Origin: a virus
Length of the DNA: 64,000 nt
Strand: one strand, 5' to 3'
IMG/VR virus record: IMGVR_UViG_3300012013_001209
Shown here in pieces: positions 25,336 to 43,886 of the stretch. A model generated the notes under the pieces. It did no database searches, was not told the DNA's origin, and was given only the letters and a program-made list of their open reading frames with translations. Made by a program: the position numbers and the translations under genes. Positions within the stretch are counted from its first letter, which is position 1, and every line of letters begins with the position of its first letter.

Positions 25336-26583
25336 TTACTCGATGGGTGCGTAGTTGGTGTTCCTTGCCTGCTCCAGAAGCTTCTGCTGGGAATTCAAGC
25401 GTTCAATCATGTCCGCAGCCGTTTGCTGCTTCTGCTGGATTCTGTTGTCCCCGCCATGGATCAGGCGCGGAAGGAAATTGCCGATCGTGGACGGACCCTC
25501 GCGGAGCTTCGTGAGCCTGTCGAAGTCGCTCTCGAACCTTGGACGCACTCGATTCACTGAGCCCAAACCGTCGCGCGCTGCTCTATGCAGGTTCTCCTGA
25601 TCCGATTTCAGATTCTGCGTGAGCCTGCTCATCTGCCCTGCGTATCCGTTACCCTCCACGTCCAATTCTTTCAGACGCGTCTGGAGTCCCGGGACCAAAG
25701 AATGATTGCCGCTCTGTCTGGCGTCCTGCAATTGCCGCGCAGTATCGGCTTTCAGTTTCATCACACTCTGTTGCTGCCCTTGCAGATGCTTTAACTGCGT
25801 CACGCCAGTGTGCGACCTCACGCCACCTCCGGAACTTCCACCACCACTCCCACCGCCGGAAATATCAGCACCAGACGCGCCGGAATATGTCCGGTTGATG
25901 TAGTCGAAGGGGCTGCTGGCCCCGCCACCGCCGCCGCCACCATCATACGACGAGCCCGAGGAACCTCCGAGAATGCCGTTCGGCAGTGCGCGCAGCGCAT
26001 TACCAATTTCGGCGTCATTGTGCAGTTTGTTCAACCACATGCCAGCCCCTGTTCCAACGGCCGCAGTGGTCGCGGCACGAGGGATTGAGCCGAACAAGGC
26101 TTTCGCGACTCCCGGAATCCTCTTGATACCCGACATGATACCTAGGCCTGCGGCTCCGGCAACAGCCGGAACTCCTTTGGTGACACCTTTGCTGAGGCCG
26201 CCGAGCACTTTGGATCCCAGCCAGTCCACACCTTTTCCGATGATGCCGAATGGTCCGGCATTTTTCACAAAGGCAGCCTTGTCCATTTCCATCGTTGCAA
26301 CATGTCCGAGGGCGCGCTGGGCGGTATTTGTGCCGAGGATTTTCTCGCCGGCTTCAATCAGCATTCGGGAAATCTGTTTGCCACCTTCGAGAGCCTTCGG
26401 CCCAACTTTGGCGATTGTCTCGAGCATGGCGGATTTCTCGAACTGATCACGATATACGGGATCCTCGGACATTTCTTTCTGCTGAGCATTGTCGAGCAGC
26501 GCCGCGGTCGTCTCCAGCGACAGGCCGGCGATGCAGCATTGTTTCACAAATTCTTCGATGAAGATTGGGTCGGTAGATTTCAT
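25336..26583 (-). CDS. Gly-rich putative internal head protein (K-x-A motifs)
   Basis: EKSA, DKAA, VKNA motifs, GxxxG helices, poly-Gly linker, coiled-coil C-terminus. Start set at ATG 26583. Confidence 0.6.
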   Translation of the reverse strand: MKSTDPIFIEEFVKQCCIAGLSLETTAALLDNAQQKEMSEDPVYRDQFEKSAMLETIAKVGPKALEGGKQISRMLIEAGEKILGTNTAQRALGHVATMEMDKAAFVKNAGPFGIIGKGVDWLGSKVLGGLSKGVTKGVPAVAGAAGLGIMSGIKRIPGVAKALFGSIPRAATTAAVGTGAGMWLNKLHNDAEIGNALRALPNGILGGSSGSSYDGGGGGGGASSPFDYINRTYSGASGADISGGGSGGGSSGGGVRSHTGVTQLKHLQGQQQSVMKLKADTARQLQDARQSGNHSLVPGLQTRLKELDVEGNGYAGQMSRLTQNLKSDQENLHRAARDGLGSVNRVRPRFESDFDRLTKLREGPSTIGNFLPRLIHGGDNRIQQKQQTAADMIERLNSQQKLLEQARNTNYAPIE

Positions 26584-26688
26584 AAAATTGTTTTTCACAA
26601 TGGCACTTTCAAATGGCGTTTTTTACAAATGGACGAAACAGTGAAGTCACAAACACCACCTTAAATGATTCGGAATTATTTGTCCCGT

Positions 26689-26728
26689 AAAAACAAACCG
26701 GGCCACCAGATTTCTCCAGTGGCCCGGT
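26689..26728 (-). terminator. Rho-independent terminator after the major capsid gene
   Basis: Perfect 10-bp stem (26697-26706 / 26719-26728) followed on the minus strand by TTGTTTTT. Confidence 0.85.
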
Positions 26729-26753
26729 CGTGATTAATCGAAGTCGCGATTCG

Positions 26754-27716
26754 TTACGGAGCGATGATGTGCTTGCTCCGCTGAACGGCATTCACGTTCG
26801 GGATCGAAACCCCGATGAATTCGTCGGCATGCATCGTGATCGTGTGCTCCTCGCGCTTGATGTAGGTCTTGATGTCCTGCAAGCGATAGGCACGACCGAG
26901 ATAATCGGGCTCGGCGAATTTGTAGATGACGTTGTCGGGCACGAGTGTCTTCTTGATCGTCGCGATGTGCGGGATGTTGAAGAACTTGTATTCCGTGAGT
27001 GCTTCGAGACCCTCAATGAGGAGGTCCTGACATTTGTCACCGCCGACTTCGTCGCGATACCATTTCAGGAACTCAATTGGGGTTGTTCTGTTCGTACAAA
27101 ACACGGAATTATTCAGGTCGCGGTCGAGCAAATGGCGGAGATTATCCGCGTAATTCGCTCGGCTGATGCGGCCGACAATTTCGAAGTTCTGCTTGACGCC
27201 GGAAGCGCCAACACCGACGGGCGAACCAACGATCTGGTCGAGACCCTTGAACCACTGAACGTCCTCCGCAGTGTGCATGTCTTTGAGCATATTGCCCATG
27301 ACCATTTCACGGAGGTTGTTTTTGTAGGTCGAGAGCTGCCACACGTTCTTCGTGAATTTCCGTGAGGAGATCCGGTAGAAGTTCGTGTCGAAGTAGTCGC
27401 CGCGGTAGAACGCCGTGTCCGCCGAATCATTGTAATTCAGACAGACAGCAGCTTCCTGCTCGGGTTCCATTTCCTCGCGGATATACTGCGACTCGTTGCC
27501 GTTGTACGTGAGGTCCTCGGGCTTGACGTCCTTGAAAGGCTGAACCTTCCGTTGGACGCCCGACTCGCGGATCTTGCGTTTGATGAGACCTTGACCGATG
27601 GCCGACGCGTTCTTGCACATATCGCCAGGCATTGCGTCCTGGAGAGCTGTGAGGAATTCCTGGTCCAGGATTTCCGGCGACATTTCCTGCTGATCAGGAT
27701 TGTTTTTGGTATTCAT
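26754..27716 (-). CDS. Major capsid protein (320 aa)
   Basis: Size, strongly biased codon usage, position after the protease/scaffold/decoration genes, dedicated terminator, K35-N-A37 after a short N-terminal segment. Confidence 0.75.
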   Translation of the reverse strand: MNTKNNPDQQEMSPEILDQEFLTALQDAMPGDMCKNASAIGQGLIKRKIRESGVQRKVQPFKDVKPEDLTYNGNESQYIREEMEPEQEAAVCLNYNDSADTAFYRGDYFDTNFYRISSRKFTKNVWQLSTYKNNLREMVMGNMLKDMHTAEDVQWFKGLDQIVGSPVGVGASGVKQNFEIVGRISRANYADNLRHLLDRDLNNSVFCTNRTTPIEFLKWYRDEVGGDKCQDLLIEGLEALTEYKFFNIPHIATIKKTLVPDNVIYKFAEPDYLGRAYRLQDIKTYIKREEHTITMHADEFIGVSIPNVNAVQRSKHIIAP

Positions 27717-27725
27717 GGATTTGGA

Positions 27726-28430
27726 TTAGACGTCGGTCGTGGTGCGGAGGTTCTTCTGGTAGTTGGTCTGGAGCTGGAGCACCAGGACTTCCCCGTTGGC
27801 GTCAGGCGCGACGTTCGAATTGGTGCGGCCGATACCGGGAGTGGTATTGGACGGACCGACATCGATCGGGCCTGCGAATTTCGAGATCTTGCCGAGGACG
27901 GTGCAGGTGCCACTCGCAACCGGAATCACGTAACCAAGACCCGCGTTGCTGATGTCGCCCGTGAGCCAGGCGTTTGCAGCGTAGGTCGTGGCGATGGTGG
28001 CGCCGGTGGGAGCAGTGCCTGCGACGGTCGCGCCGCCGGCTGCACTCGAGTGACGGAAGTAGGCCGTCTGAAGTTCGTAGTTGTCAGCGCATGAGAGCGC
28101 CGAAAACAGACCCGAACTGGTGATCATCGTGTCGTTGTAGTCGTACTTCGCGAAATGCGGAGTCGCATTCACGTCATACGTCCAATCCGCTGCCGACGCC
28201 GCGTTGGCGGTGCTGGCTGCGGTGATGGCCGTCGCGACTGGGCTCCAGCCGATTACGAAGTCTTCGTAACCGAGGGCGGAGTTCCAGAGAAGCGAGCAGA
28301 GCATCCCGGACATGATTTGATGACCAGCACGAATCGGAGCAACCGTCTCGCCATTGCTGGTACCGTTAGGGTCCCAGCCACGCAGGACGACGAGGGCGGC
28401 TTTCGCGCGCTGGATCGTTCCAATGTTCAT
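27726..28430 (-). CDS. Capsid decoration/cement-like protein (234 aa)
   Basis: Thr/Ala/Gly-rich beta protein immediately upstream of the capsid gene. Confidence 0.55.
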   Translation of the reverse strand: MNIGTIQRAKAALVVLRGWDPNGTSNGETVAPIRAGHQIMSGMLCSLLWNSALGYEDFVIGWSPVATAITAASTANAASAADWTYDVNATPHFAKYDYNDTMITSSGLFSALSCADNYELQTAYFRHSSAAGGATVAGTAPTGATIATTYAANAWLTGDISNAGLGYVIPVASGTCTVLGKISKFAGPIDVGPSNTTPGIGRTNSNVAPDANGEVLVLQLQTNYQKNLRTTTDV

Positions 28431-28458
28431 GGTGTTGTTCTTTTTTCTTGCTGATTAC

Positions 28459-28953
28459 TCACGCACGCTCGGCCTGGATTCGACGGACGGCAGCGATCTC
28501 TTCCTCCGAGGGGGAGTCGGGATCATTGCTATTCGTCACAGCTCCAGGGCTGGACAAGTATGCGCGTTTCGGCACACCAGTTCCCACTCGGTGGGCTGAT
28601 GTCGAAATTGGTGAAATCTGGCAGTAACGCCGGATTGAAGCGAGGGCGATCTTCGGATCGGAGCGGAGATCTGAGGCGAATTTCGTGGCCAGTTCGGCGG
28701 GACAGAAGTTGGCTTCAACAGCAGCCTCGACGGTCGCCGTAATATCCTCGTCCGAATAAATCGGCGCCTCAGTTTTCTTAGCACTGGCCACCTTGACCAA
28801 TTCCAGATTCGCCTCCGCATTGCGCTGCGCCACCACCGCGAAATCCCGTTCCTTGTTCGCCTGCTTGACAGCGGCGATTGCCTCGTCCACCACGGCCAGA
28901 GCTCCTGGCAGTAATGTGGACAATTTTTCGGGTGAGATGAGGGTGGCAGCCAT
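28459..28953 (-). CDS. Scaffold/core-like helical protein (164 aa)
   Basis: Coiled-coil, KVAS and KRA motifs, head-module position. Confidence 0.5.
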   Translation of the reverse strand: MAATLISPEKLSTLLPGALAVVDEAIAAVKQANKERDFAVVAQRNAEANLELVKVASAKKTEAPIYSDEDITATVEAAVEANFCPAELATKFASDLRSDPKIALASIRRYCQISPISTSAHRVGTGVPKRAYLSSPGAVTNSNDPDSPSEEEIAAVRRIQAERA

Positions 28954-28958
28954 CTGGA

Positions 28959-30095
28959 TTAGTTTGCGGGTTGGAATACAGAGTTGATCATCGCGATGGC
29001 TGCAGAGGCTTCCTTGGTCGCCTCTGCTTCAGGGTCGCCACCCATCGGAGGAGCGCCACCTTCAGGGCCGCCACCCATCGGAGGAGCGCCACCTTCAGGG
29101 CCGCCGCCACCCTGCTGCAGCGCCGCAGCGAGTTCTTGCAGCATTTTCTCGCCCTCTTCCTGCGGGATCTCCCCGGACTGCACCAGCATCATTATGAGCT
29201 GCGCCAGGTCCTCGGGAGACGGGGTCTGATCTCCACCTTCCGGATCTTCGGGTGCAGGGGCACCTTCAGGGCCTGCTGCTTCGGAATCGGCGTCGGCGTC
29301 GGCCGCACCACCCGCGTAAGCGTCCTTGATCCAGGGATGGTCAGGAAGCTGGGAACGGACCTTCTCGTGAACGGACGCCATCTTGATGATGCGCGCCTGC
29401 TCTTCCGGGGGCTGCGCGTCGAACGCGGCCTTGATGTCGTCGAGATATTGATTTGCGGACTCCTGCTGCGCCGAGGCTGCCTTTTCCATTTCGTCGGCGT
29501 ATTCCACTTCGGTCAGGAATGCTGCGTGACTGTCGAATGCGTTCTTCACGATCGCATTCGCCTCTTCCTGTGCGTGATTCTTGAGAAGGAATTGGCGGGC
29601 GAGTTCAGCGCCGCCTTCAATGGCGAAAATCGAGTGCGCCAGTTTCACAGCGAATGCCGGCGTGATTTCCACATTCGCGTCAGGGCTCGCCGCCGCAGTT
29701 TTCGCTGGTGCGCTCGTCGTAGCCGCGGTCGCCGGATTCGTGAGGTCTGCGAGCAGATTGCGGAAATTCGCTTGGACCGCCGCCAGCTTGTCGCCAGACT
29801 GCGGATGCTCCGAGGCTGACGGAATATCCTCGCCGAGACCTGTGGGGGTGGTGGTCTTGGTAATGACAGAACCCGCTTCCACTCCGCCGTACGCCCTTGG
29901 CTTGCCGTCCTTCGGCATTTGCATGCGGCCGCGGTCGTCGGCGTCACACGCAGGCTGTGCAGCGCCAGCCACGGTATTGGTGGCGTCCGCCCGATCTGCA
30001 TCGGGGGAAGTGACCGCGTGTCCGGCTGCTGCGGATTTGGCGGTGGCGGCTGCGGCGACTTTCTTGAAGAGTTGGTTACGATCGAGGACTTTCAT
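28959..30095 (-). CDS. Scaffold/core-like protein (378 aa)
   Basis: Acidic Ala-rich; KVAA, KSAA, KTAA, KAAS, KMAS, KEAS motifs; located between protease and capsid genes. Confidence 0.55.
   Translation of the reverse strand: MKVLDRNQLFKKVAAAATAKSAAAGHAVTSPDADRADATNTVAGAAQPACDADDRGRMQMPKDGKPRAYGGVEAGSVITKTTTPTGLGEDIPSASEHPQSGDKLAAVQANFRNLLADLTNPATAATTSAPAKTAAASPDANVEITPAFAVKLAHSIFAIEGGAELARQFLLKNHAQEEANAIVKNAFDSHAAFLTEVEYADEMEKAASAQQESANQYLDDIKAAFDAQPPEEQARIIKMASVHEKVRSQLPDHPWIKDAYAGGAADADADSEAAGPEGAPAPEDPEGGDQTPSPEDLAQLIMMLVQSGEIPQEEGEKMLQELAAALQQGGGGPEGGAPPMGGGPEGGAPPMGGDPEAEATKEASAAIAMINSVFQPAN
29037..29102. repeat. Two perfect 33-bp tandem copies (GPEGGAPPMGG)
   Basis: gccacccatcggaggagcgccaccttcagggcc x2. 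Confidence 0.9.
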
Positions 30096-30119
30096 GTGTG
30101 GTGATAGTTGAGTGTTGGG

Positions 30120-30148
30120 ATTGTGATTATTATTTCGACGGATGACAA
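30120..30148 (-). promoter_or_regulatory. Putative sigma70-like promoter upstream of the scaffold/capsid genes
   Basis: TTGTCA-N17-CACAAT in the intergenic gap. Confidence 0.45.
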
Positions 30149-30154
30149 GGAAAA

Positions 30155-31669
30155 TTATTGGTGAAACTGCGAGGACGCGAAAAGAACTTCCATGGGTTCC
30201 GTAATTGGAACTCCATAATCGGACATTGTTTGGAATGCTGCAAGCTTATACATTCCGTAAACTCCTGCCAGGAATTGAGCGCCCTCCTCATCAGGCCCGC
30301 GGAATTCGGAAACAACTTCGGGGTAATTGCCGCGCTCCGTCGAGCCCGATTTGATAATTGTGATGCGGATGACACGCGCCTTCACAGCCTCCGGATCTCC
30401 CGTGTATTTCTGCCCCAATTTCCCCATGAGTTTATTCACAGGATCAGTCACACCAGGATCAACCGAAATGGTCCCGGCCGAGTCGCCCGAGAATACCTGC
30501 GGGTCCATCGCCTGACACGCACAGCCATTCTTCACCAGTTGGCGGAACAGCTGCGGGAGTATTTTCTCCGCCGCGAATTTTACGCACGGATCTGAATTGA
30601 GATCCTTCATCGTCCGCCCGGTGGCGTAAGACAGGAAACTGCGGAAAGGAAGAATGCTCGCAGACTTGGCCATCTTGCCGAAGAACGTCGGAGGCCTGAC
30701 GTGACGGAGTTCGTGAATCTCCTCGTCCGTCAATTCATCCGCCCAATAAAGCGGCGCGATATTCCGGACGAATGCAACCTTCGCATTGTCGCTGGAACTG
30801 TCCACGTTGTCAGATATCCACTGCTCGTGGGCTGCCATCTTCTCCATCATCCGAGTCTGCCACGCGTTCAGTTTGAGATTGTGATGCTCATACTCATCCG
30901 CGCCATAAAACTTCGCCCAGTCGACACCAGTGATGACCGGGCGATTTGCGCTGGCTGCCTTTTTCATGTCCTCATCCGGGAAGGCGTATTCGATGTAGTG
31001 CGCCAGGCGGTCTGCCGGATACCCGACATCGGAAGCATCGAAGTAGGTGGGGTTCGGGTTGTCGACGTAGGCATACTTCTGAAACTCGGGAACCCACTGG
31101 TTCATTTTCTCCGCGGCGTGCTTGCAATAATATTGCGGGCTCGGGGACTTCTGGTTGCAGCAGGAGCACACGTCGAATTTCACACGCGCAGACATGGAAT
31201 TGCTGCGCGCCTCTCCCTTTTTGAGGGACTCGTAAATGTCGTTCGCCTTCTTGATGTTGCCCCAGACGATGAGTTCCACGCGGGCCATCGCCGGATTGTA
31301 GGCCGCATACTTCACGTCACCAATCGAGAGATCCCGACGTTTGTGATTGTGCTCACGATAATACGCACCCTCCGTCACGAACGTCGGGTGCCGCGTGAGG
31401 TTGGCCTGCTTGGACCAGTAATCCCCATTGCGGTTTGCCCCATACGCTTCGCCGTCACCCATGATGATCATGTGCTGCGCGAAATATCCTTTTGGCGGTT
31501 TGAACTCGGAAATGATCTGACGTGTGATCACGTCGGACGACGCCGACTTCACGCGGGAGTCTACATCGAGAAGGAAATTCATGTGGCCGCCACACGCCTT
31601 GAACAGCGCTTCCTGATCGTCCTGCGCGTGACATTTGACCATCCAATCTTGTTCGGTGAGCAGGTTCAT
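30155..31669 (-). CDS. Prohead (capsid maturation) protease with Zn-finger-like segment (504 aa)
   Basis: ANRNGDYW, YREHNH (candidate catalytic His), GDV...AYN, SNSMSA (candidate Ser), followed by DVCSCC...YCKH; located upstream of scaffold/capsid genes. Confidence 0.7.
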   Translation of the reverse strand: MNLLTEQDWMVKCHAQDDQEALFKACGGHMNFLLDVDSRVKSASSDVITRQIISEFKPPKGYFAQHMIIMGDGEAYGANRNGDYWSKQANLTRHPTFVTEGAYYREHNHKRRDLSIGDVKYAAYNPAMARVELIVWGNIKKANDIYESLKKGEARSNSMSARVKFDVCSCCNQKSPSPQYYCKHAAEKMNQWVPEFQKYAYVDNPNPTYFDASDVGYPADRLAHYIEYAFPDEDMKKAASANRPVITGVDWAKFYGADEYEHHNLKLNAWQTRMMEKMAAHEQWISDNVDSSSDNAKVAFVRNIAPLYWADELTDEEIHELRHVRPPTFFGKMAKSASILPFRSFLSYATGRTMKDLNSDPCVKFAAEKILPQLFRQLVKNGCACQAMDPQVFSGDSAGTISVDPGVTDPVNKLMGKLGQKYTGDPEAVKARVIRITIIKSGSTERGNYPEVVSEFRGPDEEGAQFLAGVYGMYKLAAFQTMSDYGVPITEPMEVLFASSQFHQ

Positions 31670-32007
31670 TTTTCGAGTTCTTGTGTGGGGGCTTGCGCGG
31701 TCGGCGAGGAATCCGCCTGGAGATAATCCTCACTCAGGATCACAGCGTCCTCCGCAGATGCACGCTTGAACCAGATGCCGTTTACGCGCATTCCTGCCAC
31801 GGGCGCGGCAAATAATTGATCCATGTCGAACGGGAGATTCGACAGATCGACAGACATCATCGGCGGGCCGACCTCGTATTTCATGTCAGGGACTCCGATC
31901 CCAAACGTGTCCACGGCGGAGTCGGCTGGAATACCGTCAGACAGCGCTTGCGGTCCAATTGGAATTACTTTGCGGCAGACCCGGATTTTGACGTCGTCGG
32001 TGTTCAT
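31666..32007 (-). CDS. Hypothetical protein (113 aa, KRAS motif)
   Basis: Coupled ORF in the head module. Confidence 0.6.
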   Translation of the reverse strand: MNTDDVKIRVCRKVIPIGPQALSDGIPADSAVDTFGIGVPDMKYEVGPPMMSVDLSNLPFDMDQLFAAPVAGMRVNGIWFKRASAEDAVILSEDYLQADSSPTAQAPTQELEK

Positions 32008-33056
32008 GATTCAAAAGGGTGGACTCCCAAAATGTTCATGATCCCGTCCCCAATTTCCGGGATGAAATATCCAGCCGCCGCACCGCCGCCGAGGCGCGCG
32101 AGTGATCCGCCCATGCGCAGCTTATTGTTATTGAAACGATTCAGATGCCGTTTCCCGAACAGACCGGCACGCTCTTTCCAACCCTTGCCATAATTGTAAC
32201 CGGCGTTGTTAAGTTCCTCAAGTATTCCTTCAGCTGTCCCGGCACCGGCATTGGCATCCGTGATGAATTCTCGCGCGTTCGGTGTGGTGGACCGCCCCAT
32301 AAATTCAGTCAGGGAGTGTCTGGCCGCGTCAGCGTCGAACGCCTTATTGACCGGCTGCTTCATCGTGTCCTTAAATTTCTGGAAGATGTCTTGATGTTTA
32401 CTTCCTGCTGCAGCAGCTGCTGCTCTTGCTGCAGCATGCTCCTCAGCCAATATGGGAGTAATAGAAGGTGCTGCAGGCACCGGCGCAGCTTTTGCTTTAC
32501 TCAGTAAATTGTGGAGACTTTCCAAAGAAGCATCTGCAGGACTTTTACCGCCAGCGCCAAGGCCATACCGATGCCCCGCGCCCGCACCGACCAGCGCCCC
32601 AATCCCGCGCACCACCGGTGAGTGAGTCGCATGCGTGATTGGATCCACATCACCCTTCGGCAATGCCGTCGCAATCTGATCGGAACCGTAGCCAAGGGCT
32701 GCAGTCGCTCCCGCACCAAGGCCGCCGGCCAACGCTGCATTCCCGAGCACCCGCAGGGTCTTGCGACCGAGACCCTCGCCTTGCTTCCTGGGAGCCAGCG
32801 CTGCCATGCCGCCGCCGAGAAGAGCTGACCCTAGACCGACCTGCACCGCGCGATTGTGTTGCACGGCATTCATGACTTTATCCAGGACGGACGGGCCAGC
32901 CTCGGCTGAGGCATATTTTACGAGCAGGGCAATGCGACGGGCCTTCGGAGAAATGCCAGAGAGATCCTCGGCGGACTTGCAATTCGCCAGGCTCTGCGGA
33001 TTGCGTGCGGCTGAAGTCGCAATGATTGCGTTGAGGAGTTTTTGCAGATCGGCCAT
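32004..33056 (-). CDS. Glycine-zipper putative internal/ejection protein (350 aa)
   Basis: KSA and KYAS near the N-terminus; several hydrophobic GxxxG helices. Confidence 0.6.
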   Translation of the reverse strand: MADLQKLLNAIIATSAARNPQSLANCKSAEDLSGISPKARRIALLVKYASAEAGPSVLDKVMNAVQHNRAVQVGLGSALLGGGMAALAPRKQGEGLGRKTLRVLGNAALAGGLGAGATAALGYGSDQIATALPKGDVDPITHATHSPVVRGIGALVGAGAGHRYGLGAGGKSPADASLESLHNLLSKAKAAPVPAAPSITPILAEEHAAARAAAAAAGSKHQDIFQKFKDTMKQPVNKAFDADAARHSLTEFMGRSTTPNAREFITDANAGAGTAEGILEELNNAGYNYGKGWKERAGLFGKRHLNRFNNNKLRMGGSLARLGGGAAAGYFIPEIGDGIMNILGVHPFES

Positions 33057-33058
33057 AA

Positions 33059-35304: not shown

Positions 35305-35310
35305 GTTCGT

Positions 35311-35339
35311 AGAATATCGAAGCGGATCGGAAATGACAA
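35311..35339 (-). promoter_or_regulatory. Putative sigma70-like promoter
   Basis: TTGTCA-N17-TATTCT in the intergenic gap upstream of 35304. Confidence 0.55.
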
Positions 35340-35347
35340 CTGTGGAA

Positions 35348-36283
35348 TCAGGCAGCTTGGGTGACCGTCGCGTCCACGGGGATCGTCTTCATATAAGCCT
35401 GCCGCCTGGTCAGAGTCATCGAGCGGTGACGATGAATATCCGCCAGAATCGCCCGGCCAGGATTCTTGTCGAAGAACGGAGACTCCGTGGAATCCACACC
35501 CGAGGCCTTGGCCGCCTGCAAAATCTGCCGCGCCTGATAAACCCCGACGCTCGTCGCCGGCCCCTGATTCATCCAACCATTCCGAGCCTGTACCAATCCG
35601 TTCGCCATGAACAAAGCTTCGAGGCGGGCCGGCGTATCCTTGTTGTCGTATTTCGCGAGGGCGTCAGACGGAAATCCCGCCAGGTAGAGCATGTCGTAGG
35701 CGCCGTTGTTGTATCCCGCGCGCATCAGCAAATTGTCGAACGTCTCGTTGTAAACGTAGCGGTCGTAATATTCGACGATGCGACCTTTCGGATAAACGAT
35801 CGACGAAATGAAAAGGTGATCGGATTTCCGGTCCAGCACATTGAAGAAAAGTGTCTCGTATGCCGACACCACTTCCTCGGGGAGCTTCATGTCCTCGGCC
35901 ACCGACTTGACCGTCGCATTTGGCGCCACCAGCAACGCATCGATGATCGCCTTCTCCTTCGCCATTATGGGATGGATAAATTGTTTGGCCCACAGGAACG
36001 TCCGATCCCGAAACCTGTGGTGATCACGGTTGAAACAGAAAGCCTTCCAAATAATGGCATCATCTTTCCGTAGGGATATTCCCAGCGAACGCTCATTGAA
36101 TGCCATAGTCTGCGCGAACCGCCACCCGAATTGCAGATCCTTGTAAGCAGTGAGAAACCGAGTGGTCTGATAATCATCCTGCCCCGCACTGACACTGCGT
36201 TCCATCCGGTAATTGTTCACGAAACGATCCTCCTCGGGAGGAGGCATCACGTTGCACATTTGCTGGATACGCGAGGAATTCAT
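35348..36283 (-). CDS. Hypothetical protein with possible HTH (311 aa)
   Basis: NATVKSVAEDMKLPEEVVSAYETL resembles a helix-turn-helix; long ORF with natural composition. Confidence 0.65.
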   Translation of the reverse strand: MNSSRIQQMCNVMPPPEEDRFVNNYRMERSVSAGQDDYQTTRFLTAYKDLQFGWRFAQTMAFNERSLGISLRKDDAIIWKAFCFNRDHHRFRDRTFLWAKQFIHPIMAKEKAIIDALLVAPNATVKSVAEDMKLPEEVVSAYETLFFNVLDRKSDHLFISSIVYPKGRIVEYYDRYVYNETFDNLLMRAGYNNGAYDMLYLAGFPSDALAKYDNKDTPARLEALFMANGLVQARNGWMNQGPATSVGVYQARQILQAAKASGVDSTESPFFDKNPGRAILADIHRHRSMTLTRRQAYMKTIPVDATVTQAA

Positions 36284-37026
36284 TTGTCCAAGGCGCCGTA
36301 GATATCCCCGCCCGGCAACGCTGAACGAATCGGATGCTGAGCCAACGTCCGGATCGCGCGCGCCTGTGATTCACCCGAAGTATTTTTGTGAATCGCCGAA
36401 TTCACCGCACCACCAATTCCACCTGCTACCGCGCCGCCAGCCGCCGAAGCCAATCCTCCGGTCGCCGCGCCCGCAAGAGCCCGCATCAGACGGCTCTCCC
36501 CAGGCTGAGCAGTAGCTGCGGAAGCGAGGCCGCCGAGGCCTGCGCCCAGGAGTCCCGCAGGCAATGCGAGTTTCCCTGCGCTGTGCAAAGCATTCCGCCC
36601 AATCGAACGCTCCTCCAGACCTTCATGCGTGTCGAGCAAACTGCCTTCGCGTCCTTTTTCCGTCAGACCTTGAGAGGCGACCGACTGTGCAGCTTCGTGA
36701 GTTCCGAGGAGTTTGCTGAGCAGCAACCCTGTGAGAGCCCCGCCACCGCCGGCGAGGATTTTGTCCCTGAGATCACCTCCCGTCAAATGCGCAGCGCCCG
36801 CGCCCAAGCCAGCTCCAGCCAGCATTGGCAGACCGGCGCCAGCCATTCTTCCGACCATGGAACGAATCGGGTGATCGATGGCTGCTTGCGAGCGTAGTGC
36901 CTTCGCGTTCAGCCAGCGGCCGGCCGCATTGGAATTGGAGGGTCGCTCCTTTTCACGCTTCTCCGCCGATTTGATCATACCGTCGGCGTAAATGATATGG
37001 AACGCGAGCGCGGTGTTTGTGTGCAT
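36280..37026 (-). CDS. Leader-bearing glycine-zipper cargo protein
   Basis: MHTNTALAFHIIYADGMIKSA leader; multiple GxxxG hydrophobic helices. Start set at ATG 37026. Confidence 0.7.
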   Translation of the reverse strand: MHTNTALAFHIIYADGMIKSAEKREKERPSNSNAAGRWLNAKALRSQAAIDHPIRSMVGRMAGAGLPMLAGAGLGAGAAHLTGGDLRDKILAGGGGALTGLLLSKLLGTHEAAQSVASQGLTEKGREGSLLDTHEGLEERSIGRNALHSAGKLALPAGLLGAGLGGLASAATAQPGESRLMRALAGAATGGLASAAGGAVAGGIGGAVNSAIHKNTSGESQARAIRTLAQHPIRSALPGGDIYGALDK

Positions 37027-37030
37027 GGAA

Positions 37031-39412
37031 TTATTTCCCAAGCGCAGGCGAGCCGTTGCGACTCGACGCGGTCTCGGTCGTATTGCGCTGACGCATCTCC
37101 AGGATCTGGTCGCCCAGAGCCTTGAAGCAGGAAATCAATCCCTGCTCCTTGTCCGCCATGTCGTCCACGCCGAACGCTTTTTCCATGTCTTTCGGCTTCC
37201 AGTAGAACAGGAAGAGCGTACGCCCAAGACGATCCAGGCAGGCCTCGAATGCCGGCTCATATTTGTCGAGCATGGCGGCAGCGTCGAACGTCTTCACCAA
37301 ACTGCTGAGCACACCGTGTTCAAAGGCGAACGGGGTGTCCTTCTGTTTCTGCATCCGCTGAATATCCTCAGGAGATGCGTGCATCAGCGTTTCCTGATCG
37401 AGATTCTTCGCGTTTGCGATCTCTGACCGCGGCCCCTGAGTATGCCCGCCGCGACCGCCCGCGGGATCCCAGACCTCATTGAGCGGGATGTCGCGAATTG
37501 GCGGCTGCGAAGTGATCGTGTCGAGTCTGAAGCTCTGCGGGAATTCCAACTCGGTACCGAGCGTGGCGTCGTAATTCGTCCGGAATTGCGGATGACTGGA
37601 GATTGTCGTCACACCGTAGGCGGATTTCTCCATCACGAAATCGACCCGCTTCTTTTCCAGCATGCCATCCACCAATTCCATCACCGTTTCTCCGGGGATG
37701 CGGTAGGCATGGGCGAGACAGGCAGCGGCCGATTTTACCGTCTCGAACGTCAGCAGATCCGTGTGCGCGAATTTGATCTCGAATTTGTCGTCCTCACGCT
37801 TCGCCAAATACCCGCTCTGGAAATTCCCGCGGGCCAACTCAGCTGTGAGGGCGGAAGTAGGCATGATCGCCGGAACATCCACCAAACGCATTTTCGGCAC
37901 CGTCACCACCTTGCCAGCAGTGTGACAAAGATTGGAGACATCGGGTTCGTTGTCCCGTTTCGTCTCTTCCTCCGTGTCGAGCTTGATGAAGAGGACGTCT
38001 TCATTGAGGATGCCAGTCTCCCAATCCGTGCGCGGGGCGTCTGGATTGAGCATGATCGACAGACCGCGCCACGGCTGCACGCCATCCTGCGAAATCGGGA
38101 CGATGATGGCGTTCTTCACGCCGCCAGTGCTCGAGGAGATTTCCGCGAAATAATATGCGCGACGTGACGCCATCCCAGTACGCTTGTCGAAAATGAGATA
38201 CGCCTCGCCTTCCTTCGGGGACTTCTTGCCCTTCGGCTCCATCACGTCCGACAATTCCTGTCCCGTCACGCGTCCCATAATGGAACGCCGCTTGCCGTAA
38301 TCAGCTGGAGCTAGGAATGTGTTGCCGGGTTTCAGGAAAAGAATGCCCATGCTGTCCTCGGACTGCGTTGCTCCCGGAGGGCACGGATACGGACTGGACG
38401 AGGACAGATCGCTGCCGGACAATTCCTGCGTGCGAACCATCACCGCCTCACCGCCGGATTCCCCGATGACGGGCAGATCGTAAACTCCAGGGGAATTGAC
38501 TTCCTCCCAATTACCGGCCGGCTCGTAAACTGTGGAGAGCCCTTTGACGTCGCGATTGTCCTCGATGGCAAATCCGTATTTGCACATGGCTGAGATGCCG
38601 TCCTTTTTCAGCGCGGCATTTTTCACACCTCCCACATGGATCACCAGCTCGGCGATCTCGGCCGAAGCGGATTTGACCACTGGGTCCGGCAGATCCGCGG
38701 GCATGATCATGTCGAGGTTTCCATCGATGCACTGCATCAGCATCTCAGCACAGACTGCGCTGGATTTGATGATGTCCGCGATGTAGCCGATGGCCGGGCG
38801 TCCGCCGTCCTCGACGATGAATTTCCGGATCATGTTCCCGGGGACGTAATTCGCGTATTTGTCCATGCTGGACATGTCCGCGATGATTTCGTCTATCATG
38901 TCCTGGCGAGCGGCATCGGGATTGATGGATTGGAATGCGAAGTTGGCGTTGGCGTATTTCGTCCCGCGACCTGGGATGATCAACGGTGCCAGATCCGTGC
39001 CGGTGGGCAGACGGTTCAGGCGAGAGCGGTCCTGACCCTCTCCCAATTTATGCTCGGCCTTCTTGGTGAGTTCCTTGACCCAGCCTTCGGTGAGCGGCAC
39101 GAACAATTGCGGGCCGACGCGGTAGAGCAATTCTTGACCCTTGATTTTGCCGTTCAGGAAGAAGATTGGCGCGTAGAGCAAGTCCTTGTTCACGCGGAAT
39201 GCGAAGATGCCGACGAGACGATTCTTCTCCTCGTTGCTGTAGATCATCTCGAACCCGAGGAAATGATCTTTGTCGAGGAGCTTGCCGGCCCGCTGAGCCA
39301 CGGCAGAATATGCCTGGCTCGCGAATTCTTTTTCGGTGCTGTCGTTGTCCAGCACCTCCTCGGCGGATTTGATCCAGTCGTAACTGGGCTTCTGCATCGT
39401 GGCTGTTTTCAT
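37031..39412 (-). CDS. Large putative head core protein with K-x-A motifs (793 aa)
   Basis: KTAT, KSAE, KYAN (x2), KSAS, KSAA, KSAY motifs spaced through the protein. Confidence 0.7.
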   Translation of the reverse strand: MKTATMQKPSYDWIKSAEEVLDNDSTEKEFASQAYSAVAQRAGKLLDKDHFLGFEMIYSNEEKNRLVGIFAFRVNKDLLYAPIFFLNGKIKGQELLYRVGPQLFVPLTEGWVKELTKKAEHKLGEGQDRSRLNRLPTGTDLAPLIIPGRGTKYANANFAFQSINPDAARQDMIDEIIADMSSMDKYANYVPGNMIRKFIVEDGGRPAIGYIADIIKSSAVCAEMLMQCIDGNLDMIMPADLPDPVVKSASAEIAELVIHVGGVKNAALKKDGISAMCKYGFAIEDNRDVKGLSTVYEPAGNWEEVNSPGVYDLPVIGESGGEAVMVRTQELSGSDLSSSSPYPCPPGATQSEDSMGILFLKPGNTFLAPADYGKRRSIMGRVTGQELSDVMEPKGKKSPKEGEAYLIFDKRTGMASRRAYYFAEISSSTGGVKNAIIVPISQDGVQPWRGLSIMLNPDAPRTDWETGILNEDVLFIKLDTEEETKRDNEPDVSNLCHTAGKVVTVPKMRLVDVPAIMPTSALTAELARGNFQSGYLAKREDDKFEIKFAHTDLLTFETVKSAAACLAHAYRIPGETVMELVDGMLEKKRVDFVMEKSAYGVTTISSHPQFRTNYDATLGTELEFPQSFRLDTITSQPPIRDIPLNEVWDPAGGRGGHTQGPRSEIANAKNLDQETLMHASPEDIQRMQKQKDTPFAFEHGVLSSLVKTFDAAAMLDKYEPAFEACLDRLGRTLFLFYWKPKDMEKAFGVDDMADKEQGLISCFKALGDQILEMRQRNTTETASSRNGSPALGK

Positions 39413-39430
39413 GTGTGGGATCGAACTGGT

Positions 39431-40555
39431 TCAGGACATTCCGTCGACCGCCGCGGACGCGCGCGGAGCCGCACCGAAGAAGCTCGAAGAGGGCGATCGA
39501 ACACCCGGGGCCGTCTGCGGCGGAGTCCATCCTGGCGGACGTCCGATGCTCTGAATGAAGTTGCCAATTCCCTCGCCAGTGCTCGTCGGACTGAATACCG
39601 TGCCGAGGCCGAGCTTCAAACGGTCCATCAAGGGCATGTTCTGCAAATTCTTGGCCGCCTCAGCCGCCATGTCCTGCGCTTGACGTGCACCGGACAATTC
39701 ACCTTCCTTGCCTTTGACGTAACCGTGGATCTGACCGCCGACCGAATTAGGGCCCAGTGCGATGGTGCCTGCGGTTGTGCCGGCCCAGCCGAGACCTTTG
39801 ACAGCGTTCTGCTGCCATTTCGGCATGGCCTTGAAGGCGTCGCTGACTTCTCCGCGCATCCCGCCCCAAATCCGTTTGCCGGTGGTGGGGTCGAATTTCG
39901 GGACGGCACTGCCGAACAATTCTTTGTTGGCGCCTGCCAACGCGGATACACCTTTGGCACGCTGAGCCAGCGCTGCCGCGACCTCGGGGCTCTCGGCGGC
40001 AAGACCTTTTTCAGCAGCCGCCACGAGACCTTTGCCGCCGCGCATCTTGTTCCACCACCCGGCAATGCGGGTCGGGGCACTTGTGATTAATTTCCCAGCA
40101 TAGGGGAGGGCCTTGCCGATCAAGTCGCCAATCCCTGCTGATTTCTCCCATCCATTTTCATGGATTTCGATGACGTTGAGAATCCCAATGGCGAGATCGG
40201 AATTGTATGCCGCAGTCTTTTTCTGCTGCTTCTTGTTCGCTCGCTGATTCAGCAAGTGACTGAATAATCCGGCGAGACCGGCAGTGCCGACCACTGCACC
40301 AGTACCGATGAGCGCCTTGGACAGTGTCGGATGATTTGGGATCATCGCGCGCTCTCCCTGGATTTTCTCCATTATGTCGAGGCTGTTGCGCGCGCTGGCT
40401 TCCTGAAGCTGCTTGATCCGCTGCGTGATTTCAGGCGGTAGCGTGGGCGTGGGTCTTGAAGACAAATTCTTTCCGGCCTCCCCCAATAGGGTGGCCGATT
40501 TCACGATCTCCGATGCGGCGAGTAGGTGAAATGCGATGTCGGTGGAAGGTTTCAT
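39431..40555 (-). CDS. Leader-bearing two-part cargo protein (374 aa)
   Basis: MKPSTDIAFHLLAASEIVKSA leader plus an internal leader-like copy ending in WEKSA; hydrophobic Gly-rich helices. Confidence 0.7.
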   Translation of the reverse strand: MKPSTDIAFHLLAASEIVKSATLLGEAGKNLSSRPTPTLPPEITQRIKQLQEASARNSLDIMEKIQGERAMIPNHPTLSKALIGTGAVVGTAGLAGLFSHLLNQRANKKQQKKTAAYNSDLAIGILNVIEIHENGWEKSAGIGDLIGKALPYAGKLITSAPTRIAGWWNKMRGGKGLVAAAEKGLAAESPEVAAALAQRAKGVSALAGANKELFGSAVPKFDPTTGKRIWGGMRGEVSDAFKAMPKWQQNAVKGLGWAGTTAGTIALGPNSVGGQIHGYVKGKEGELSGARQAQDMAAEAAKNLQNMPLMDRLKLGLGTVFSPTSTGEGIGNFIQSIGRPPGWTPPQTAPGVRSPSSSFFGAAPRASAAVDGMS

Positions 40556-42249
40556 TGTCCAAGGTAGGCGTTGAGCACTTTTGCGCTTTTCGGGGGATGG
40601 TTAAACATCATATTTGAAGCCGGCGTGGCCTTGGGTTTTGGCATGTTGTTGTAGCCGTGAATTGCTCCTGAGGCTGCTCCTGTGGCTCCTCCGAGCAGCC
40701 GTGCCAGGAATTTTGCCTTCAGGTCTCCTCCGGCCAACGCAGCCAGACCGTGGCCACCCATCATTCCAAGAATTCCACCGCCAGTAGCGTTTAATCCAGT
40801 ATTCAAACCGCGCAGCGCCCCTTGACCTGCACCTTGACCGCTGGGCAATACAGCGCCGCCGAGTGCGCCGAGCAAAGGATATGCAGTCAGCGCGGCTGTC
40901 GTAGCACCAGGAAGCGCGTATGATAGATGTCCGGCAAGACCTTTTGTCACGGACGGCATCGATTCACCCATAGCCTTGAATAAGGCGTCACCCACACCGG
41001 CGCGCTTCACACCACCCATCGGTGCGCGGCGCTGCGAAGCCGCATACTGCGAGGGCGACATGGTATTCTGACTGTCCAGCCGCGACGACCGCGCCCCTCC
41101 TCTGGCTGCCTGGGCCGCCATCATCTGCTGCATGCTCGCCACATCGCCCTTGCTGTTCGGATTGAAACGCGACTTGGTGGCGACCTGGAAATCGCGCATA
41201 GCTTGTGCCGACGGCTGCTGCGGACGTGCTTGCACGGTCGCCTGAGGGATGCTCGGCGGGACGGCCCTGGTCGGTTCCGGCGCTGAAATATCCATGGGCG
41301 GCGGAGTCGCGAACGTGAGACCGGGGGCGGACTGCACAGGCCTCTCCGAAGCCATCGACATCTGCGCTGGAGGAGCCGGAGGCAGATACGAGTCGGAATT
41401 AAGCGGGGCAGGGGCGGCGATGGCGCTCTCAGGCCTCTCCGAAGCCATCGACATCTGCGCTGGAGGAGCCGGAGGCAGATACGAGTCGGAATTAAGCGGG
41501 GCAGGGGCGGCGATGGCGCTCTCAGGCTTCTGCATCTGCTGACTGGTAGCAAGATTCTCGGGATTCGTGCTATCATCCAGACCTTGCAACGAGCGTTCAT
41601 CGACAGGCCCCTGCATGGGGGGTGGGGCTTGCGGGGCAGACTCAGGAACCACAGCATCCCCCATATTACCGGGGAGATGAGCGCCCTGCAAATTGTCAAG
41701 CGCGGGCACATTAGAAAGACCGTAGGTGTTCGACGGAGGGCGCGCAGGCTCCGGAGTGGTCAGGCCGCGAGTGGTCTGATTCCAGGCTGGGTTCGCGGTC
41801 TGAGGCGTGATGCCTTGCGTGTTCCAGCCCTGCACAGGACCCGTATTCGGGTTCAGCTGGATACGTCCGGGCTGGGCGGGCTCGCCGACACCGCCGCCGT
41901 AATCGGCTTTGGGGCTGATACCTGGAATCGCAGCGGCGGGTGGCTTTCCAATCCCGCCGTTGAATGCTGGTCCCATTGACTGGTCTGATCCGCTATTGAG
42001 AGCGCCAACGCTGCCCGCACCAAGTCCACCCGCGGCGATTGCCGTCGCTGGACCTCCCAATTTATTGATTACTTTCGGTACCGTCGGAGGAATTTTGCCG
42101 ATGCTTGGAATGGCTTTGACGGCGGGTCGCAGAGATTGCATGCCGCGGAGTGCGAGCTGGCCGGTGCGTGCGAGGGCCTGACCGTAGCCCGATTTGATCA
42201 TTTCTTTGGCGGACAGGATGTGAAAAGACAGAGCAGTAGTGGAACGCAT
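40552..42249 (-). CDS. Leader-bearing Pro/Gln-rich and glycine-zipper cargo protein
   Basis: MRSTTALSFHILSAKEMIKSG leader (ATG 42249); low-complexity middle; KRAG before the C-terminal GxxxG helices. Confidence 0.7.
   Translation of the reverse strand: MRSTTALSFHILSAKEMIKSGYGQALARTGQLALRGMQSLRPAVKAIPSIGKIPPTVPKVINKLGGPATAIAAGGLGAGSVGALNSGSDQSMGPAFNGGIGKPPAAAIPGISPKADYGGGVGEPAQPGRIQLNPNTGPVQGWNTQGITPQTANPAWNQTTRGLTTPEPARPPSNTYGLSNVPALDNLQGAHLPGNMGDAVVPESAPQAPPPMQGPVDERSLQGLDDSTNPENLATSQQMQKPESAIAAPAPLNSDSYLPPAPPAQMSMASERPESAIAAPAPLNSDSYLPPAPPAQMSMASERPVQSAPGLTFATPPPMDISAPEPTRAVPPSIPQATVQARPQQPSAQAMRDFQVATKSRFNPNSKGDVASMQQMMAAQAARGGARSSRLDSQNTMSPSQYAASQRRAPMGGVKRAGVGDALFKAMGESMPSVTKGLAGHLSYALPGATTAALTAYPLLGALGGAVLPSGQGAGQGALRGLNTGLNATGGGILGMMGGHGLAALAGGDLKAKFLARLLGGATGAASGAIHGYNNMPKPKATPASNMMFNHPPKSAKVLNAYLGQ
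41338..41527. repeat. Perfect 93-bp tandem duplication (31 aa)
   Basis: Units start at 41338 and 41431 and appear identical (RPESAIAAPAPLNSDSYLPPAPPAQMSMASE). Confidence 0.95.
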
Positions 42250-42303
42250 AAGTTTGGATTCTGAACGATTTTTGAAATTAAGCAAGACTCAAGGATTTGA
42301 AAA

Positions 42304-42504
42304 TCACACGGCTCTGCCGTTGGGCCGCTTTTCACTCTCCGCTCGAAAGGCTTCTCTCAGCTCGTCTGCGGTGCATACACCTTTTGCGACTAGCACGCGA
42401 TTCATCGCGGAGATGGAGAATTTGAGTAACTCAACCGCGCCCTCTCTCCGCTCGATGTTTTTCGCCAGCGAACGGCCCTTGTGGGAGTTTGGAGGCGTTT
42501 TCAC
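42304..42504 (-). CDS. Small hypothetical protein (66 aa)
   Basis: ATGA overlap with the upstream gene; helical RVLVAKGVCTADEL segment. Confidence 0.55.
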   Translation of the reverse strand: MKTPPNSHKGRSLAKNIERREGAVELLKFSISAMNRVLVAKGVCTADELREAFRAESEKRPNGRAV

Positions 42505-43886
42505 GGGCAGCCTCCCAGCTGTGCGATATCCATCAGCGCGAACGCCAAATATCGCGCAGCTGCCGACTTGAGCAGACGCTCACCGTTCGGTCCAAGGAAG
42601 TCACTGTATTCCGGCTCCGGCACTGCACCAGGGATCTTCACTTTACGAAACGGAATATTCAAATCACCATTTACCGCGGACTCCGCCGGCAACGGAATTT
42701 TATTCCCTCCCGGCCCCAATATCCTGCTGAAATTAATGCCGGACAAGTTGCCAGCCGCGCCAGCCGTCGGAGGGACTTCCGGAGCCGTCGGAGCCGCGTT
42801 CATCAGACGATTCAATGCCTCGTTGACCGCAGCAGGTTCTCCCCCGCGCAGTTTCTTGTCGCCCATCAGAAGTTTGTTCACACCAGGCCCCATGTTCCCC
42901 GGATGAATGATCAAACTCTTGGCAGCATCCGACGAGATGGCCGGCGCCGCGACCGGCATTGGCAGTTTGCCTTTCAATTTCACCGGGCTTGTGAACATGT
43001 TCACGAAGGCGCGTCCAAAGCTTCCGAGCGAATCAATTTTCTCGTGCGGGTGCAGGCCAAAATCCCAGTTGTCCTCGAAGGTGCCGTCCGGCTTCACATG
43101 GAAATTACCGGGAACTCCACGGGATGACACCAATTGGGATCCGTCTGCATTTCCTTTGGGAATTTCACCTGTGTGAATATCGGTCATCGGCTGTCTGATA
43201 TCCCGAACCATCGACTTCAGCTCGCTCTGCGCCTCCCGACTCTTCGGGTTGTAATGCAGGACTCCTTTTTCAGTCGGATCTGCCGTGAAGAATTTACGGA
43301 ACGCCCGCGGCTTCAAACCGAATCCCATGCGGTAGGGAACCTCACGTGCCGAATATGGTCCGCGTGTGGTGACCTCATTGGGAAACTTCGCGGCCTCGTA
43401 AATCGGCTTGTCCTTCACGACGGCCTTGATCATGTCCATGATCTTGTAGCCCTTCAACTTCTTGATTTTTTCCGCCGTCTCGTAACTCCGAGGCTCCACC
43501 AGATTCGTCAAAATCCGACCCATTCCCCTCTGCGCCATTCCAGGCGCGAACCGCCCAAATAATCCACCACCAACAGCGCCGCCGAGCGCGCCCTTCATCT
43601 TGTGTCCCTTGTCGGCATTGAGGCCGCCGATGCCTGCGCCGATGGTTGCGCCGCCGGCCACGTTCTTCAGGCGGTTCGCAGGGTCCACGAAATTGTAGGA
43701 CATTACCTTGCGCAGCAGTTCTTCCTTTTTTCCACCGCCGGAATTGAGCCACCCGAATATGTCGAGGCCTTTGCCTAAAGCACCCTCGGCCGCAGGCAAC
43801 GCGTGACCGAGGACCTTTGCGGCTGCCGCGTTGGCATTCTTCTCGAAATCAATTGCCGCGAAGGCGATGGCAGTGGACGGGTGCAT
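42501..43886 (-). CDS. Leader-bearing cargo protein with an unassigned globular domain (461 aa)
   Basis: MHPSTAIAFAAIDFEKNA leader; glycine zipper; central domain ending GNFHVKPDGTFEDNWDF; KSA near the C-terminus. Confidence 0.7.
   Translation of the reverse strand: MHPSTAIAFAAIDFEKNANAAAAKVLGHALPAAEGALGKGLDIFGWLNSGGGKKEELLRKVMSYNFVDPANRLKNVAGGATIGAGIGGLNADKGHKMKGALGGAVGGGLFGRFAPGMAQRGMGRILTNLVEPRSYETAEKIKKLKGYKIMDMIKAVVKDKPIYEAAKFPNEVTTRGPYSAREVPYRMGFGLKPRAFRKFFTADPTEKGVLHYNPKSREAQSELKSMVRDIRQPMTDIHTGEIPKGNADGSQLVSSRGVPGNFHVKPDGTFEDNWDFGLHPHEKIDSLGSFGRAFVNMFTSPVKLKGKLPMPVAAPAISSDAAKSLIIHPGNMGPGVNKLLMGDKKLRGGEPAAVNEALNRLMNAAPTAPEVPPTAGAAGNLSGINFSRILGPGGNKIPLPAESAVNGDLNIPFRKVKIPGAVPEPEYSDFLGPNGERLLKSAAARYLAFALMDIAQLGGCP

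Follow-up and report, generated by a model that had tools for sequence, protein, structure and literature searches.

A Lys-x-Ala motif as the predicted processing signal of a prohead protease in a divergent, large, myovirus-like phage

The prohead protease gp21 of phage T4 destroys itself once the core is digested. For gp245 of phage SPN3US, mapping of the cleavage sites placed A-x-E at positions P3-P2-P1 and showed a preference for Val at P4 and for Ser at P1'; the motif is present more than once in several propeptides, and the substrates include the capsid protein, the portal, and abundant ejection proteins (PMC10052503). In herpesviruses, the protease-scaffold fusion pUL26 is self-released by a cut at YLQA-T/S, and VQA-S is the site of scaffold trimming; some of these proteases have internal sites (PMC4498786). 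Here we analyzed a stretch of 64,000 nt of viral DNA (IMG/VR record IMGVR_UViG_3300012013_001209, in the following the window), in which the tripeptide K-x-A is strongly enriched in proteins encoded by the head gene cluster at positions 25336-43886. We consider it probable that the prohead protease of this phage itself recognizes K-x-A and cuts there, with Lys and Ala occupying P3 and P1, respectively, and Ser or Ala following at P1'. The occurrence of cleavage, the assignment of this enzyme as the cutter, and the position of the scissile bond after Ala are inferred from the motif statistics, the conservation of the sites, the protein identities, and the fold described below.

All genes of the 64-kb window are located on the minus strand, and the source is a very divergent, large, myovirus-like phage. 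When 30 window proteins were scanned against Pfam and PHROG, the head genes remained nearly without a match.

K-x-A enrichment in head proteins and their orthologues

The following genes of the head cluster are central to the analysis:

30155-31669, minus strand: prohead protease with a helical, scaffold-like C-terminal half, 504 amino acids (aa), 14 K-x-A (AlphaFold2 (AF2) model and a family of 45 homologues)
28959-30095, minus strand: Ala-rich, acidic, scaffold-like protein, 378 aa, 11 K-x-A (composition and gene position)
28459-28953, minus strand: small head protein, Ala-rich and acidic, 164 aa, 5 K-x-A (site 54 conserved in 4/4 orthologues)
34498-35304, minus strand: propeptide-like N-terminal part (269 residues) of 33808-35304, a protein of 498 aa, with all 9 K-x-A copies of this protein
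37031-39412, minus strand: virion protein, 793 aa, 11 K-x-A (homology to gp218, an abundant structural protein of Salmonella phage Arash)
26754-27716, minus strand: major capsid protein, 320 aa, HK97 fold (profile, Atlas, and blastp matches)

We compared the number of K-x-A copies in each protein to 2000 composition shuffles of the same protein. The strongest carrier was the protease gene 30155-31669 with 14 copies versus 3.5 expected (z 6.2). The motif was also in excess in 28959-30095 (11 versus 3.9), 37031-39412 (11 versus 4.8), 33808-35304 (9 versus 4.2), and 28459-28953 (5 versus 1.7). For these five head-cluster proteins together, 50 copies were present versus 18.0 expected (z 8.6), an enrichment of about threefold. 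A preliminary description of this DNA had placed the motif in the same genes; its figure of about 6-7 copies for 37031-39412, 33808-35304, and 28959-30095 was too low (11, 9, and 11 copies), and the top carrier is the protease gene. The genes 32004-33056 and 25336-26598, the capsid gene, and the leader-bearing genes showed no overall enrichment and have single sites near the N-terminus. At the places named in that description, the motif is indeed present.

The signal was specific for the spacing and the residues. Among all residue pairs with gaps of 0-4 in the five head proteins, K.A ranked first (z 7.5; dots denote any residue), followed by the related pairs M.K and VK. Only a weak excess was seen for K..A (z 2.9), and KA, K...A, AK, A.K, A..K, R.A, K.S, and K.G were at or near chance. 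The same was true for the Glu motifs in the head proteins, with 39 versus 41 expected for [SAG].E (phiKZ and SPN3US type) and 36 versus 28 for [LIV].E (T4 type). As a reference we used the 17 proteins of 916-23845, here called the tail side, where a weak VgrG-like DUF2345 match is the sole supported identity. These proteins had 24 K-x-A versus 29 expected. On the tail side the plain motif thus occurs at chance level, as it does in the rest of the window; by eye it had first been judged rare in the sheath, tube, spike, and baseplate proteins. The strict motif [VILMF]K.A[SA] was found 10 times versus 0.7 expected in the head set and 0 times versus 1.6 expected in the 916-23845 proteins.

Several of the carriers are Ala-rich and helical, and together with the weak K..A excess (z about 3) this would be in line with a K-x-A excess that simply follows from the composition or structure of helical proteins rich in Ala and Lys and has no signaling function. 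We disfavor this explanation as highly improbable. When shuffling was confined to blocks of 20 residues, z was still 7.4 for the five window proteins and 23 for their orthologues, so that local richness in Ala and Lys is not the cause of the excess. The pairs KA, AK, A.K, and A..K were at or below expectation, and Ala-rich proteins of the tail side had no K-x-A excess. Moreover, sites are conserved in position, also in non-helical leaders and in the N-terminus of the capsid protein. A motif at the DNA level was ruled out as well: the 50 sites are encoded by 45 distinct 9-mers, and with such diverse codons the signal resides at the protein level.

A scan of viral contigs with the protease revealed no relative; relatives came from a protein database and its contigs. 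Eight syntenic loci (L001-L008) from related contigs were compared to the window, and orthologues with 25-55% identity were assigned by BLAST. The gene order protease, scaffold-like 378-aa protein, 164-aa protein, 234-aa protein, and capsid protein is kept in L001-L004 and L006-L008, while L005 stops just downstream of the protease. In the pooled orthologues of the five enriched proteins, K.A was present 329 times versus 111 expected (z 23), and K.A[SA] 162 times versus 21 expected. K-x-A was in excess in the orthologues of the protease (133 versus 36), the 378-aa protein (87 versus 28.8 in 7 orthologues, z 12), the 164-aa protein (27 versus 7.5), the 498-aa protein (56 versus 20.5), the 793-aa protein (76 versus 35.9), and the capsid protein (21 versus 10). 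No K-x-A excess was seen in orthologues of the tube, the neck-region genes, the 311-aa protein, and the RNA polymerase beta' fragment, and the Glu motifs in the orthologues were close to expectation ([SAG].E 281 versus 269; [LIV].E 203 versus 179). The preliminary description had suggested comparing K-x-A counts in head and tail proteins to shuffled controls; by this comparison the motif is enriched in the head set, and also in its orthologues.

The sites of the orthologues alone yielded the consensus [L/F/M]-[V/I/E]-K-x-A-[S/A]-[A/V], with Ser after Ala 4.2-fold over-represented. A position-specific scoring matrix (PSSM) trained only on these orthologue sites detected 29 high-scoring sites in the genes 25336-43886 and 2 in the 7471 residues of the tail side.

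Three further proteins were conspicuous in their K-x-A content. The conserved 311-aa protein 35348-36283, which lies in the middle of the K-x-A-rich cluster, has no K-x-A, and its 8 orthologues have 8 versus 10.7 expected. In the sheath-sized 936-aa protein (19323-22133 and its orthologues in L001-L004, L007, and L008) the motif is depleted, with 4 copies versus 15.8 expected in 7 orthologues (z -3.2), which could mean that the protease motif is avoided or could stem from composition. A search of PDB sequences gave no match for 19323-22133, a putative sheath. The open frame 60072-63974 (more than 1300 aa) has no overall excess (11 versus 9.0); five of its sites, at residues 72, 381, 532, 728, and 907, exceeded the 95th percentile of the null when scored with the orthologue-trained matrix.

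The protease, the capsid protein, and the scaffold-like carriers

The features of the protease and the capsid protein that are discussed below are:

31016-31651, minus strand: protease domain, residues 7-218 of the 504-aa protein (VIA-align and Foldseek matches to T4 gp21, 5jbl)
31541-31549, minus strand: K41-S-A43, predicted N-terminal auto-processing site (K and A in 44/45 family members, S45 in 44/45; in a coil ahead of the fold)
30953-30961, minus strand: K237-A-A239(-S), predicted protease/scaffold release site (K in 44/45, A in 45/45, Ser at P1' in 34 members)
27606-27614, minus strand: K35-N-A37, followed by S38, predicted maturation site of the capsid protein (orthologue alignment and PSSM)

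The 504-aa protein had 59 homologues in the database, on metagenomic contigs of up to 217 kb, and 45 of them were aligned. An AF2 model based on the 45-sequence alignment reached a mean predicted local distance difference test (pLDDT) value of 86. Residues 7-218 of the model were aligned to T4 gp21 (5jbl) by VIA-align with Z 11.6 and a root-mean-square deviation of 3.0 over 147 of 165 residues, and the top three Foldseek matches were all 5jbl (probability 1.00). Judged from this model, the N-terminal domain has the T4 gp21 prohead protease fold. VIA-align values for herpesvirus proteases were lower (varicella-zoster virus 1vzv, Z 5.9; human cytomegalovirus 8j3s, Z 4.6; Kaposi's sarcoma-associated herpesvirus 1fl1, Z 2.5) and too low to be safe alone, with unrelated folds at Z of about 4. 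The candidate catalytic residues His66, His107, and Ser158 are invariant in 45/45 homologues. Sequence searches were less informative: the protein had no Pfam match at E ≤ 0.1 (neither Peptidase_S77 nor S78) and no head-protease PHROG, the family profile retrieved no PDB sequence at E ≤ 10, and a protein language model linked the protease to S78/S77 clusters (0.88-0.90), which we took as a lead only.

Every one of the 45 aligned homologues was enriched in K-x-A, with a mean of 13.9 copies versus 3.8 expected. Lys and Ala residues inside the motifs were about twice as conserved (0.66 and 0.72) as the other Lys and Ala residues of the family (0.35 and 0.33). Of 44 homologues, 43-44 retain sites 41, 198, and 237, and most retain sites 277, 335, and 364. 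The region of K237-A-A239-S has the lowest confidence of the model (linker residues 220-270), and residues 233-503, the predicted scaffold-like half, are all helical. Both halves of the protein are about 3.6-fold enriched in the motif. K41-S-A43 and M-K-K-A-A-S (K237-A239) had both been named in the preliminary description and are present in 30155-31669.

In three homologues of the family (P0038, P0051, and P0055) the protease gene contains intein/LAGLIDADG insertions (PF14528, PF14890). Such insertions were also found inside the gene for the beta' fragment in L003 (1-2850) and L008 (1-111).

Since Lys is the most constrained position besides Ala, we considered that the motif marks proteolysis at another bond or by another enzyme, for example, a cut after Lys as made by the HK97 protease, or a cut by a host protease. 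R.A was not enriched, which argues against a generic preference for basic residues. The invariant Ala two residues downstream of Lys and the Ser or Ala next to it point to the bond between Ala and Ser, similar to assemblin. The motif also co-occurs with the protease family in 45/45 homologues and in distant cultured relatives. A different bond or enzyme is therefore quite improbable in our view. A Lys(P3)/Ala(P1) specificity of the phage enzyme, as first proposed from the letters of the window, is supported by the enrichment, the positional conservation, the lack of an excess of Glu motifs, and flanks like those of the SPN3US gp245 sites, and stands as a prediction from sequence.

A profile of the 8 capsid protein orthologues matched PDB entry 6wkk (phage G gp27) with E 1.1e-4 over residues 165-311. 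Atlas feature scores to capsid clusters were 0.96-0.98, and blastp against Arash gp226, which is annotated as major capsid protein, gave E 4e-20. By these sequence matches the product of 26754-27716 is the HK97-fold major capsid protein. The identities originally given to the capsid protein and the protease thus hold, by the profile match to 6wkk and the T4 gp21 fold (Z 11.6), respectively. The coordinates 27606-27614 for K35-N36-A37 are also correct. Residues K35, A37, and S38 are invariant in 8/8 orthologues, although the first 30 residues diverge, and the site has a PSSM score of 3.8, above the 99th percentile of the null.

The gene 27726-28430 directly upstream of the capsid gene encodes an Ala/Thr/Gly-rich, Lys-poor protein of 234 aa. 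The decoration protein gp26 of phage G has the same position, and by this analogy the product is possibly a decoration protein.

From their position, we assign the 378-aa and 164-aa proteins a putative role as scaffold or core. In the 378-aa protein, 5-6 of 6 orthologues share sites 151, 184, and 238, and the fragments calculated from its motif positions are mostly 8-33 residues in length, with two of 83 and 104. In the 498-aa protein all copies are in the propeptide-like N-terminal part, and the conserved C-terminal domain (about residues 395-498), which is homologous to Arash gp221, has no K-x-A. For the 793-aa protein K15/A17, K264/A266, and K596/A598 are invariant in the alignment (A3), and sites 15 and 596 are kept in 7/7 orthologues. 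PDB profile and Atlas searches with this protein gave nothing usable. It has no homology to the annotated Arash portal gp204, and no portal was identified within the window.

N-terminal leaders and the proposed course of processing

K-x-A occurs within the first 60 residues in 12 of 16 head-cluster proteins versus 10 of 33 other proteins (Fisher p 0.005). Five proteins share a common leader of 18-21 residues, x-S/N-T-x-x-A-F-H-I/L-L...I/V-K-S/R/N-A, and further sites lie close to the N-terminus of other proteins:

40493-40555, minus strand: leader M-K-P-S-T-D-I-A-F-H-L-L...I-V-K-S-A (21 residues) of 39431-40555 (sequence and PSSM)
36964-37026, minus strand: leader M-H-T-N-T-A-L-A-F-H-I-I...M-I-K-S-A of 36280-37041 (PSSM score 3.5)
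42187-42249, minus strand: leader M-R-S-T-T-A-L-S-F-H-I-L...M-I-K-S-G of 40552-42285, in which Gly replaces Ala (sequence)
43833-43886, minus strand: leader M-H-P-S-T-A-I-A-F-A-A-I-D-F-E-K-N-A of 42501-43886 (PSSM score 2.9)
24538-24600, minus strand: leader M-N-A-N-T-E-L-A-F-H-I-L...M-V-K-R-A of 23662-24600, a gene just outside 25336-43886 (sequence)
39362-39370, minus strand: K15-S-A17 in the 793-aa protein, where its N-terminal leader ends (7/7 orthologues; in a low-confidence N-terminal segment of the model)
32910-32918, minus strand: K47-Y-A49(-S-A) in 32004-33056 (PSSM 6.8, the top single site of the window; 3/3 aligned orthologues)
26428-26436, minus strand: K55-S-A57 in 25336-26598 (PSSM 3.2; K.A within 4 columns in 3/4 orthologues)

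Two observations concern the leader-bearing genes. In the Pro/Ala/Gly-rich protein encoded by 40552-42285 (577 aa), a segment of about 35 residues (P-E-S-A-I-A-A-P-A-P-L-N-S-D-S-Y-L-P-P-A-P-P-A-Q-M-S-M-A-S-E-R-P) is duplicated exactly in tandem. The longest open reading frame called at 22844-23845 starts with GTG and shares 184 bases with the leader-bearing gene 23662-24600; the real start of 22844-23845 is probably further downstream.

A motif that ends common N-terminal leaders on unrelated proteins and recurs within scaffold-like proteins, for which binding to the shell is a necessity, could also act as an uncut docking motif for targeting to the capsid or for scaffold/shell binding. We regard this as unlikely. 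Neither a position at the junction between protease and scaffold nor the presence of 14 copies within the protease would be expected of a docking motif, and the same applies to the strong preference for Ser or Ala right after the motif. The P4 and P1' flanks agree with the logo of a mapped protease, SPN3US gp245. In T4 the targeting sequences end at the cleavage site, and by this precedent targeting and cleavage need not be alternatives.

If K-x-A is the cleavage motif of the prohead protease, the enzyme would free itself at K41-S-A43 and K237-A-A239 inside the assembled prohead. It would then remove the N-terminal 37 residues from the capsid protein and clip leaders of 17-30 residues, by which internal or ejected proteins were probably brought into the prohead. 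Next to be chopped up would be the scaffold-like proteins and the long propeptide of 33808-35304, with the protease itself as the last substrate. Most of the resulting pieces would measure 10-35 residues and a few would be longer, and they could exit the shell ahead of DNA entry. Sites are located after leaders, at the protease/scaffold junction, and in the N-terminal half of 33808-35304, and their placement therefore fits processing. Self-destruction as in T4 gp21 would explain why the protease contains 14 copies.

Several points weigh against cleavage by the protease at K-x-A. The five enriched proteins were chosen with the motif as a guide; the test on orthologues mitigates this, yet orthologues share descent. 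Over the 45 homologues the K-x-A enrichment of the folded catalytic domain matches that of the scaffold half (268 versus 75), and the nearly invariant site 198 lies in a beta strand, so that some copies may be structural or otherwise used. In the 793-aa protein, 7 of 11 sites fall into low-confidence or linker segments, which make up 42% of the protein, and this is not significantly above chance; the AF2 model of this protein is poor (pLDDT 56, 7 sequences). The capsid protein of phage G has no K-x-A at all, and the code is thus not universal in the wider family. Finally, the paper on phage Arash lists virion proteins by coverage values, and its supplement comprises gene and protein sequences without peptides.

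Gene neighborhood, cultured relatives, and comparison to known systems

Outside the head genes, Pfam and PHROG matches were obtained for four genes:

43886-45727, minus strand: C-terminal fragment of RNA polymerase beta'
46893-47825, minus strand: amidase endolysin
3420-4229, minus strand: sigma-70 region 3
16365-18821, minus strand: VgrG-type DUF2345 (weak match)

In window proteins other than the five head proteins, pairs with Cys were over-represented (observed versus expected: CQ 22 versus 5.8, C...G 34 versus 12.4, C.I 23 versus 7.3), which suggests a Cys-repeat module in at least one large protein.

Among cultured phages, tblastn of a phage collection with the protease detected gp222 of Salmonella phage Arash (OQ632216; 29% identity, E 4e-24; blastp E 2e-29), as well as proteins of the Vibrio phages D69/D148/D181 and gp19 of Bacillus phage G (E 4e-6). 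The relationship to all these phages is distant (22-29% identity). The window and Arash also have homologous capsid proteins, beta' fragments, and gp218-type proteins, and gp218 is an abundant virion protein of Arash with 1149 spectra (PMC10585845). Within the head cluster of Arash (gp220-gp226), K-x-A is in excess in gp220 (10 versus 3.0 expected), gp223 (8 versus 2.9), gp225 (7 versus 1.8), and the protease gp222 (7 versus 3.2). The flanks are alike (G-I-V-K-V-A-S, E-L-V-K-E-A-S), also at G-L-V-K27-E-A29-G of the capsid protein. The 86.6% coverage of the Arash capsid protein, with 41 of 307 residues uncovered, is compatible with the loss of the predicted 29-residue leader and is not a test of it; the K-x-A-rich proteins gp221, gp223, and gp224 have 100% coverage, which does not discriminate. 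In phage G the protease gp19 has 8 K-x-A versus 2.3 expected, and gp7, gp21, and the N-terminus of the portal also carry the motif.

Our literature search found no paper on a Lys/Ala specificity of a phage prohead protease. Arash gp222 is annotated merely as "structural protein", and published descriptions of this phage do not mention the motif; the multi-omics paper on phage G mentions the protease as an annotated gene only. The fold and the process are known, and the specificity predicted for them here is new. If true, Lys(P3)/Ala(P1) joins the Glu-specific prohead proteases of T4, phiKZ, and SPN3US, and the maturation proteases of phages and herpesviruses are linked by the scissile bond besides the fold. 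For a clade with nearly no Pfam or PHROG matches, the motif would also provide an annotation rule that flags the protease, scaffolds, propeptides, and head-packaged proteins and predicts mature N-termini. The cultured relative Arash makes the prediction directly testable.

A much wider interpretation is possible but doubtful. A mostly uncultured clade of phages of about 120-500 kb, reaching to Arash, the Vibrio phages, and phage G, may share one Lys-x-Ala|Ser code for packaging and processing, in which short leaders ending in K-x-A would define all proteins that are loaded into the head and later ejected, including modules of an RNA polymerase polyprotein. The bond between Ala and Ser would then be common with herpesvirus assemblins by descent, and the Glu specificity of T4 and phiKZ would be derived.

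The window protease resembles T4 gp21 (MEROPS S77), phiKZ gp175, and SPN3US gp245 in its catalytic fold and in the position of its gene beside the scaffold and capsid genes. Further common features are propeptides with multiple sites, the removal of N-terminal leaders from internal proteins, which is predicted here, and sites in the protease itself. The predicted specificity differs: those enzymes have Glu at P1 and Leu/Ile or Ala/Ser/Gly at P3, whereas we predict Ala at P1 and Lys at P3. The motif of the window has the same P3-x-P1 frame as the SPN3US gp245 sites and the same flanks (Val at P4, Ser at P1'), with two positions exchanged. Unlike these proteases, the window enzyme is fused to a helical scaffold-like half of about 265 residues and lacks a Pfam S77/S78 match.

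Its predicted arrangement, an N-terminal protease and a C-terminal scaffold-like half with a candidate release site at the junction, would parallel that of herpesvirus assemblin/pUL26 (MEROPS S21), and the fold may be related. The herpesvirus enzymes cut after Ala and before Ser or Thr, and the same bond is predicted for the window phage. The residues further upstream are different, with a hydrophobic P3 and a polar P2 in the herpesvirus sites, but Lys at P3, a hydrophobic P4, and a free P2 in the window motif. Herpesviruses have two or three sites versus dozens here, host and virus lineage differ, and the structural match is far weaker than that to T4 gp21.

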